Below are positions 48,069-48,967 of a stretch of DNA of 64,000 nt, piece after piece. How positions within the stretch are numbered: position 1 is the stretch's first letter; every line of letters starts with the position of its first letter. The notes under the pieces are model-generated. The model had not been told where the DNA came from, ran no database searches, and was given only the letters and a program-made list of their open reading frames with translations. A program made the translations under genes and the position numbers. Source of the DNA: Escherichia coli (GTDB taxonomy: Bacteria > Pseudomonadota > Gammaproteobacteria > Enterobacterales > Enterobacteriaceae); assembly GCF_030013595.1 (NCBI RefSeq), contig NZ_CP122768.1, one strand, 5' to 3'.

Positions 48069-48211
48069 AAAAACACCCCTTCTTATGTTTGCTGTCGCGC
48101 AGGCTGGAAGCCCGAGGTTTTTTGTTAATGTGGCGGCAGAGGTAGCCGGACCTTGTAGATACTGCGAAATCTGGCACTGAATCGGTTAACTGTCCAGTCG
48201 ACGGCCTTTTG

Positions 48212-48388
48212 TGTGATATCAGTCACATAAATATAGGGGGTAGAGAGGTAATTGACGTGATGCTCATCACAAAACGACTGTGTAAAAAAGCAACAAGGCG
48301 GCGATTTTCGCTAAAAATGGCATTTAAATGTGAGTAATGTCACATTTTTGTTTTGTTAGTTTGTTGAATCTTTGTGATCTGAATCACA
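48212..48388. promoter_or_regulatory. mtlA promoter region with at least three perfect CRP-type palindromes
   Basis: tgtgatatcagtcaca (48212..48227), tgtgagtaatgtcaca (48329..48344), tgtgatctgaatcaca (48373..48388), plus a half-site near 48256. Confidence 0.65.
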
Positions 48389-48604
48389 AGATATTTTCTT
48401 ACGGCGTTCACCTGATGTGATCTGCAGCATGTTATGCCTTCGTCATAAAATCGTTATGTAACTAAGCAACTCATCACCTCTAAAAATTATTCTTTGGTGT
48501 TATGGCGAGAATCGCGAACCCGAATTATTGTCAAAATATCAGCCTGACTCCCTTCTGGCTGCCAGCCAAAAAACAACACCGATAAACGTGAATCCGAGGC
48601 AGAT

Positions 48605-48967
48605 ATGTTTCTAAACTATTTCGCGTTGGGAGTGCTGATCTTCGTCTTTCTGGTGATTTTTTATGGAATCATCGCGATACATGACATCCCTTATCTGATT
48701 GCCAAAAAGCGCAACCATCCCCATGCCGACGCTATTCATACGGCGGGCTGGGTGAGCCTGTTTACTCTACATGTTATCTGGCCGTTCCTGTGGATCTGGG
48801 CGACGCTCTATCAACCGGAGCGCGGCTGGGGCATGCAGTCACATGTTGCGTCGCAAGAGAAAGCGACTGACCCGGAAATCGCCGCACTTTCTGACCGAAT
48901 TTCCCGGCTGGAGCACCAACTCGCCGCCGAGAAAAAGACTGACTATTCCACGTTCCCGGAGATCTAA
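48605..48967 (+). CDS. yibI: DUF3302-type small inner membrane protein YibI
   Basis: 120 aa; [50 protein letters not shown]. Confidence 0.85.

Follow-up and report, generated by a model that had tools for sequence, protein, structure and literature searches.

A five-site CRP array upstream of mtlA marks the very probable operator-promoter of the mannitol operon in Escherichia coli

The 536 bp between the divergent genes mtlA and yibI in the stretch of Escherichia coli DNA analysed here (the window, 64,000 nucleotides of contig NZ_CP122768.1) contain an array of five CRP sites. We are highly confident that this region, 48069-48604, holds the class III CRP-dependent operator-promoter from which E. 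coli expresses its mannitol operon, mtlADR. The array of five CRP sites has been described in detail before, and since the region is a well-studied control region, the cluster is an ordinary feature. The region and its two flanking genes are:

46155-48068, minus strand: mtlA, mannitol PTS EIICBA, 637 aa, the gene under control of the CRP cluster
48069-48604, 536 bp: mtlA/yibI intergenic region, between divergent genes
48605-48967, plus strand: yibI (DUF3302), 120 aa, the divergent neighbour, of which the CRP architecture is independent

The genes follow in the order mtlA, mtlD, mtlR, and mtlA, the first gene of the operon, lies directly downstream of the CRP array. Strain 118UI is 100% identical over the region, and its annotation reads yibL-yibT-mtlR-mtlD-mtlA on one side and yibI-yibH-yibF-selA on the other. 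The intergenic region was found, at 90% identity or more, in 5402 of the 5426 complete E. coli genomes.

The initial annotation had described a cluster of CRP palindromes upstream of mtlA, with three perfect sites and at least one half-site within about 180 bp. The cluster is real. A pattern search for TGTGA-N6-TCACA found exactly three perfect sites in the 64 kb, at 48212-48227, 48329-48344 and 48373-48388, all inside 177 bp. The half-site proved to be the site at 48416-48431, which matches 7 of the 10 core bases and was found by direct reading; with a 9/10 site at 48256-48271, found by mismatch search, it makes two further sites rather than one. Numbered as in the published K-12 operon, and with centres also given relative to the mtlA transcription start, the five sites are:

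48209..48230: CRP5, core TGTGATATCAGTCACA at 48212-48227, 10/10, centre 48219.5 (-58.5); the promoter-proximal, class-I-like site, with its core unchanged in 12 E. coli genomes
48253..48274: CRP4, core CGTGATGCTCATCACA at 48256-48271, 9/10, centre 48263.5 (-102.5), 44 bp from CRP5
48326..48347: CRP3, AAATGTGAGTAATGTCACATTT, core at 48329-48344, 10/10, centre 48336.5 (-175.5)
48370..48391: CRP2, core TGTGATCTGAATCACA at 48373-48388, 10/10, centre 48380.5 (-219.5), 44 bp from CRP3
48413..48434: CRP1, a weak site, core TGTGATCTGCAGCATG at 48416-48431, 7/10, centre 48423.5 (-262.5), 43 bp from CRP2

The flanks of CRP3 are the consensus AAA/TTT. CRP sites were scored by mismatch counts with shuffled controls, together with the published PhyloScan ranking (PMC1794230), a genome-wide Crp scan from 2007 that placed the mtlA/yibI intergenic region first. 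By chance, 0.06 perfect sites would be expected per 64 kb, and none of 100 dinucleotide shuffles reached three or more. When one mismatch is allowed, the whole window has five sites, and four of them fall within 48069-48604. Words with two mismatches number 22 across the window, against 26 expected by chance, and this chance-level count means that only the strong sites carry signal. One other group of CRP-like words, three with one or two mismatches at 16937-17102, lies in an AT-rich coding sequence of the O-antigen-ligase family, which was found in 691 of the 5426 E. coli genomes. These words were judged to be chance matches.

For the mtlADR operator-promoter of E. coli K-12, all five CRP sites were reportedly described by Ramseier & Saier in 1995, in work that is said to be the basis for the later study by Lee et al. 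In K-12, the sites are centred at -262.5, -219.5, -175.5, -102.5 and -58.5 from the S1-mapped start, with CRP2 and CRP3 matching 10/10 conserved bases and CRP1 7/10 (Lee et al. NAR 2026, PMC13421365). The centre spacings in the window, 44, 73, 44 and 43 bp from CRP5 to CRP1, equal the published K-12 values, and the comparison with the mapped mtlA promoter elements shows agreement in positions, spacings and core scores. Each of the published EMSA probes (-287/-33, -128/-33, -201/-77, -245/-150 and -287/-194) brackets the expected sites when placed on the window. Thus, the reading of the cluster in the initial annotation as part of a CRP-dependent mtl promoter is supported, since the five centres and spacings are those of the mapped mtlADR CRP sites (PMC13421365).

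The published site positions also allowed the mtlA start to be back-calculated to about position 48161, with a possible error of 1-2 nt. Hexamers that we assign as -35 and -10 elements lie at canonical distances from this start, and they are moderately conserved in 44 species. The core promoter, the leader and a putative site for Cra are:

48161..48196, minus strand: mtlA core promoter, with -35 TGGACA at 48196-48191, a 17-bp spacer and -10 CAGATT at 48173-48168
48069..48160, minus strand: mtlA 5′ untranslated leader, about 93 nt counting the start base 48161
48177..48190: putative site for Cra (FruR), CTGAATCGGTTAAC, at -16 to -29, between the -35 and -10 hexamers

All five sites, from -58.5 to -262.5, lie upstream of the S1-mapped start, and the back-calculated start likewise puts them all upstream of the predicted mtlA transcript. 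A generic sigma-70 and terminator scan of 48000-48700 missed the mtlA promoter; its matches, one promoter-like and one terminator-like, were misplaced and no more than chance would give. Such a miss is expected when a promoter is weak and depends on an activator, so the scan is uninformative. An Rfam scan of 47900-48800 (E ≤ 1) returned no RNA family, so that no known riboswitch or sRNA is seen in the leader or the intergenic region. We take CTGAATCGGTTAAC to be a good Cra-like half-palindrome, from its match to the Cra consensus. The mtl promoter has been reported to have a Cra site through which Cra represses, its position unspecified (PMC13421365), and CTGAATCGGTTAAC would fit this repression.

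The array is strongly conserved within E. coli. The window and K-12 are 97.6% identical over the 536 bp and differ by 13 substitutions, without any indel; the N6 centres hold five of these (one in CRP5, two in CRP4, one in CRP3 and one in CRP1), and the pentamers hold none. We compared 12 E. coli regions, namely those of the window, K-12, 118UI, MS1718, 6629, TKEC21-59, WP5-S18, AR_0067, E69, Nord122 and UTI89, and the contiguous part of GPEC1054. The cores and spacings are the same in all 12, with every core base and every spacing kept, and the cluster is therefore not specific to one strain. Among ten of these regions 67 positions segregate, and these are distributed unevenly: 0 of 40 positions in the CRP2-5 pentamers, 1 of 10 in the CRP1 core, 11 of 30 in the N6 centres and 55 of 456 elsewhere. 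Compared with other positions, the invariance of the CRP2-5 cores has P ~0.006, and the excess of segregating positions in the N6 centres has P ~0.0009.

Two structural variants were seen near these sites. In GPEC1054 (NZ_CM142793.1, 3337-6180) an IS21-family element (istA/istB) has inserted between CRP2 and CRP1, at about window position 48404. It detaches only CRP1, reported to be dispensable, from mtlA, and it separates yibI from CRP2-5. The mtlA-mtlD spacer, at 46061-46154, is 94 bp here versus 229 bp in K-12 and 118UI, that is, 135 bp shorter. The short spacer also occurs in Nord122 and is probably due to the loss of a REP/BIME unit.

The spacing is also conserved well beyond E. coli. For the cross-species scan, one genome per species was searched for two perfect CRP cores 43-46 bp apart, which gave at least 120 loci. 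Among the matches listed, the CRP pair lies directly upstream of an mtlA homolog in 63 of 120 loci; these homologs have 65-100% protein identity and come from Enterobacterales, Pasteurellaceae and Orbaceae. The pairs upstream of mtlA are exactly 44 bp apart in 62 of 65 cases and 43 bp apart in the other three, again among the matches listed. The 57 listed loci that are not at mtlA come mostly from phyla without CRP, such as repeats in Tannerella MAGs, and their spacings take values across the whole 43-46 bp range; a few others are truncated loci in genera that have mtlA. No second conserved regulon with a 44-bp CRP pair was found among the matches listed. The survey independently supports the published claim that a 44-bp CRP-CRP spacing is essentially specific to mtlA.

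Because the search pattern itself demanded perfect CRP2/CRP3 cores, the independent cross-species observations are only CRP4, CRP5, the 73-bp gap and the 44-bp preference. The second pair, CRP4/CRP5, was absent from the search pattern and thus provides independent evidence; it is present, 44 bp apart and with each site carrying 0-2 mismatches, in a further 44 Enterobacterales species among the matches listed. The CRP3-CRP4 gap in these species is 73 bp in 42 of the 44, 72 bp in one and 74 bp in one (among the matches listed). The 44/73/44 spacing is kept from Escherichia to Pectobacterium, Budvicia and Pantoea, and the distances of the sites to the mtlA -35/-10 hexamers are conserved across species as well. 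In an ungapped alignment of 44 sequences, the information content is 1.88 bits for the pentamers, 0.43 for the N6, 0.42 for the CRP1 cores and 0.60 for other positions; CRP1 is thus poorly conserved across species.

Other families show different arrangements upstream of mtlA. Pasteurellaceae have three perfect CRP cores spaced 40 and 44 bp (in some, 40/43 or 41/43), which lie nearer to the ATG, at about -100 to -200, and are more compact than the enterobacterial 44/73/44 array. Orbaceae (Gilliamella) have two cores 44 bp apart. Within the 44 Enterobacterales species, two elements outside the CRP sites are nearly invariant, unlike the surrounding spacers. One is AACAAA (on the mtlA strand), a few bases to the promoter side of CRP2 at 48392-48400, and the other is a TTTTT run upstream of CRP4 at 48299-48312. 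They may be sites for Fis or elements that bend the DNA.

The most variable positions of the region are the N6 centres of four sites: 48217-48222 in CRP5, 48261-48266 in CRP4, 48334-48339 in CRP3 and 48421-48426 in CRP1. Among the sampled E. coli, only CRP2 has an invariant N6. Between the window and K-12, N6 divergence is 17%, compared with 6.9% at fourfold-degenerate sites of mtlA (P ~0.07) and 1.8% in the rest of the region. For a pair of Pantoea sequences the N6 value is 33% versus 12.7% at fourfold sites (P ~0.01), and an Enterobacter/Cedecea trio has the same pattern of N6 variability. That the N6 bases genuinely evolve faster than nearby synonymous sites, with the pentamers frozen and the rest of the intergenic region constrained, strikes us as unlikely. 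The excess is most simply explained by relaxed constraint beside a heavily constrained region and a codon-biased gene. If relaxed constraint is not the whole cause, mutation may be locally more frequent where CRP is bound, or the affinity for CRP or the bending of the DNA may have been retuned repeatedly, site by site, in different lineages. At the mtl operator, the N6 variability is the only observation that is even mildly new.

A chance or repeat-derived origin of the palindromes, with no regulatory role, can be considered, since words with two mismatches do occur at chance level across the window. We give this origin practically no weight. There are three perfect sites where 0.06 are expected, the cores are invariant while the N6 centres vary, the spacing is conserved across genera, and both binding and site-mutant data have been published for K-12 (PMC13421365). 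The conservation pattern and the published site mutants together refute it. A second explanation is that the cluster also, or even mainly, controls the divergent promoter of yibIH, in which case CRP would activate in both directions here, as at malEp-malKp. The cluster does sit in a shared 536-bp divergent intergenic region, only 181 bp separate CRP1 from the yibI ATG, and a urine-induced promoter-trap fragment of UTI89 directed toward yibI, 4027775-4027295 (about 48276-48756), contains CRP1-3 (PMC5404293). However, not one of the five sites lies in the other UTI89 fragment that was induced in urine, 4027590-4027356 (about 48461-48695; PMC5404293). Both fragments read toward yibI and were placed on the window by way of the UTI89 annotation. 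Since the CRP-free fragment is also induced, the yibI promoter would lie downstream of the cluster and would not need it. Furthermore, at loci with at least 1.5 kb of upstream sequence, among the matches listed, a yibI homolog is absent from 37 CRP-pair/mtlA loci and present at 12; the conserved site distances are those to the mtlA -35/-10 hexamers, and the IS21 element of GPEC1054 splits yibI from CRP2-5. Bidirectional use of the array is therefore possible but unsupported, and we regard it as improbable.

The remaining alternative is that MtlR binds DNA operators of its own in this region, separate from the CRP sites. The initial annotation had referred to such MtlR operators, and genetic titration does show MtlR acting via the promoter region, since a multicopy promoter fragment derepresses mtlA only in mtlR+ cells (PMC5320558). 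However, MtlR has no DNA-binding domain, gives no shift by itself and needs a CRP pair, for which any spacer will do (PMC13421365), and the spacers between the paired sites are poorly conserved across species, at about 0.6 bits. Separate operators were doubted already in 2017 (PMC5320558), and they are contradicted by the published EMSAs (PMC13421365), so this explanation is highly improbable; MtlR is without a DNA operator of its own, and its target is the CRP pairs (PMC13421365). A repression complex of CytR with CRP was likewise excluded, because 48069-48604 contains no CytR half-sites: the motifs GTTGCATT, AATGCAAC and TTGCAA are all absent from it. No result of the analysis speaks against the reading of the region as the CRP-dependent operator-promoter of mtlADR.

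The urine-induced yibI promoter implied by the UTI89 data would lie within the 144 bp upstream of the yibI ATG, at about 48461-48604, where there is no CRP site (PMC5404293). A consensus scan of this interval found no convincing -35/-10 hexamers for yibI.

The function of the individual sites is known from K-12. There, cAMP-CRP binds the mtl sites and is essential for transcription, as shown by EMSA, site mutants and a Δcrp strain (PMC13421365). Strains with a chromosomal mutation in CRP2, CRP4 or CRP5 neither express the operon nor grow on mannitol, a mutation in CRP3 lowers both, and CRP1 is dispensable (PMC13421365). MtlR, which lacks a DNA-binding domain, gives no shift of the mtl fragment by itself (PMC13421365). 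For MtlR to supershift CRP-DNA, two CRP dimers must lie 43-46 bp from each other, best at 44-45 bp and with any spacer sequence, and the malK sites become a target of MtlR once their spacing is altered from 34 to 44 bp (PMC13421365). The supershift of CRP-DNA by MtlR and its release by dephospho-EIIMtl have been published for both K-12 and Salmonella. Three pairs in the window fall within the 43-46 bp range, with spacings of 44 bp for CRP4/5, 44 bp for CRP2/3 and 43 bp for CRP1/2.

The proposed mechanism for the window follows from these data. We infer that the allele of this strain would behave as that of K-12, from which it differs at 13 positions, none of them in a core pentamer. Dimers of cAMP-CRP would bind at CRP5, CRP4, CRP3 and CRP2, with the weak CRP1 normally empty. 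Bound CRP would activate the weak sigma-70 promoter (TGGACA/CAGATT), with transcription starting about 93 nt upstream of the mtlA ATG. Repression would operate via the same sites, an MtlR dimer bridging two CRP dimers in the pairs CRP4/5 and CRP2/3; it has been proposed that docked MtlR covers the surfaces with which CRP touches RNA polymerase. On induction, mannitol transport would give a dephosphorylated IIB domain of MtlA, which would sequester MtlR at the membrane. When glucose is present, dephospho-HPr would compete for the same surface of MtlR, so that MtlR would come off MtlA and repression would return.

The region closely resembles K-12 mtlADR: the locus is the same, and the five sites, their 43/44/73/44 spacing, their core scores and the -35/-10 hexamers as we assign them all agree; the differences are the 13 SNPs, a frameshift at the 3′ end of mtlR and the 135-bp shorter mtlA-mtlD spacer. 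Other systems are similar in part. In the CytR-CRP system (deoP2, cdd, udp), a repressor likewise exploits tandem DNA-bound CRP dimers for anti-activation, but CytR is a LacI-family DNA binder that uses octamer half-sites between the CRP sites, whereas MtlR reads only the CRP-CRP geometry. The malEp-malKp system is also a divergent region with an array of CRP sites (plus MalT) that forms a higher-order nucleoprotein complex. However, the CRP sites of mal, with a spacing of 34 bp, depend on MalT, and MtlR binds them only after respacing to 44 bp (PMC13421365); for the mtl array, use by the divergent gene is unsupported. In the Mlc-EIIGlc system, the repressor is likewise sequestered on a dephosphorylated PTS transporter, although Mlc binds DNA directly, while MtlR is anchored through CRP.

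The mtlR gene itself is altered in the window:

44157..44912, minus strand: mtlR frame, 251 aa instead of 195, following a 1-base loss in a homopolymer

The homopolymer reads A6 on the strand of mtlR and T6 on the plus strand (44341-44346), compared with seven in K-12 and 118UI. The MtlR of the window equals that of K-12 through K191; the last four residues, AFQK, are replaced and 60 residues are added, and the extension runs antisense over yibT. Among 3824 matching E. coli genomes, only one shares the A6 allele, Nord122, in which mtlR is annotated as a pseudogene. A6 may reflect either an error in sequencing the homopolymer or a rare allele produced by slippage. In MtlR, R167 and L178 contact CRP and the C-terminal helix forms the CRP interface (PMC13421365). 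Both contact residues are retained in the 251-aa protein, so a loss of MtlR function is not evident. The extension may nevertheless affect MtlR, including its stability or the geometry of its dimer, since it follows from the C-terminal helix that forms this interface.

The mtl array was described in 1995, stood at the top of Crp scans in 2007 and had its mechanism dissected in 2026, and finding it again therefore has little discovery value. It serves instead as a positive control, a real regulatory array that was recognised from sequence alone. It also corrects the model for the neighbouring mtlR finding. The initial annotation had pointed to this region as the place where an mtlR defect would be felt, and the region stands; the target within it would be the CRP pairs themselves, instead of separate operators. 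MtlR has no operator of its own, and thus it is at the 44-bp CRP pairs that any defect in mtlR would take effect.
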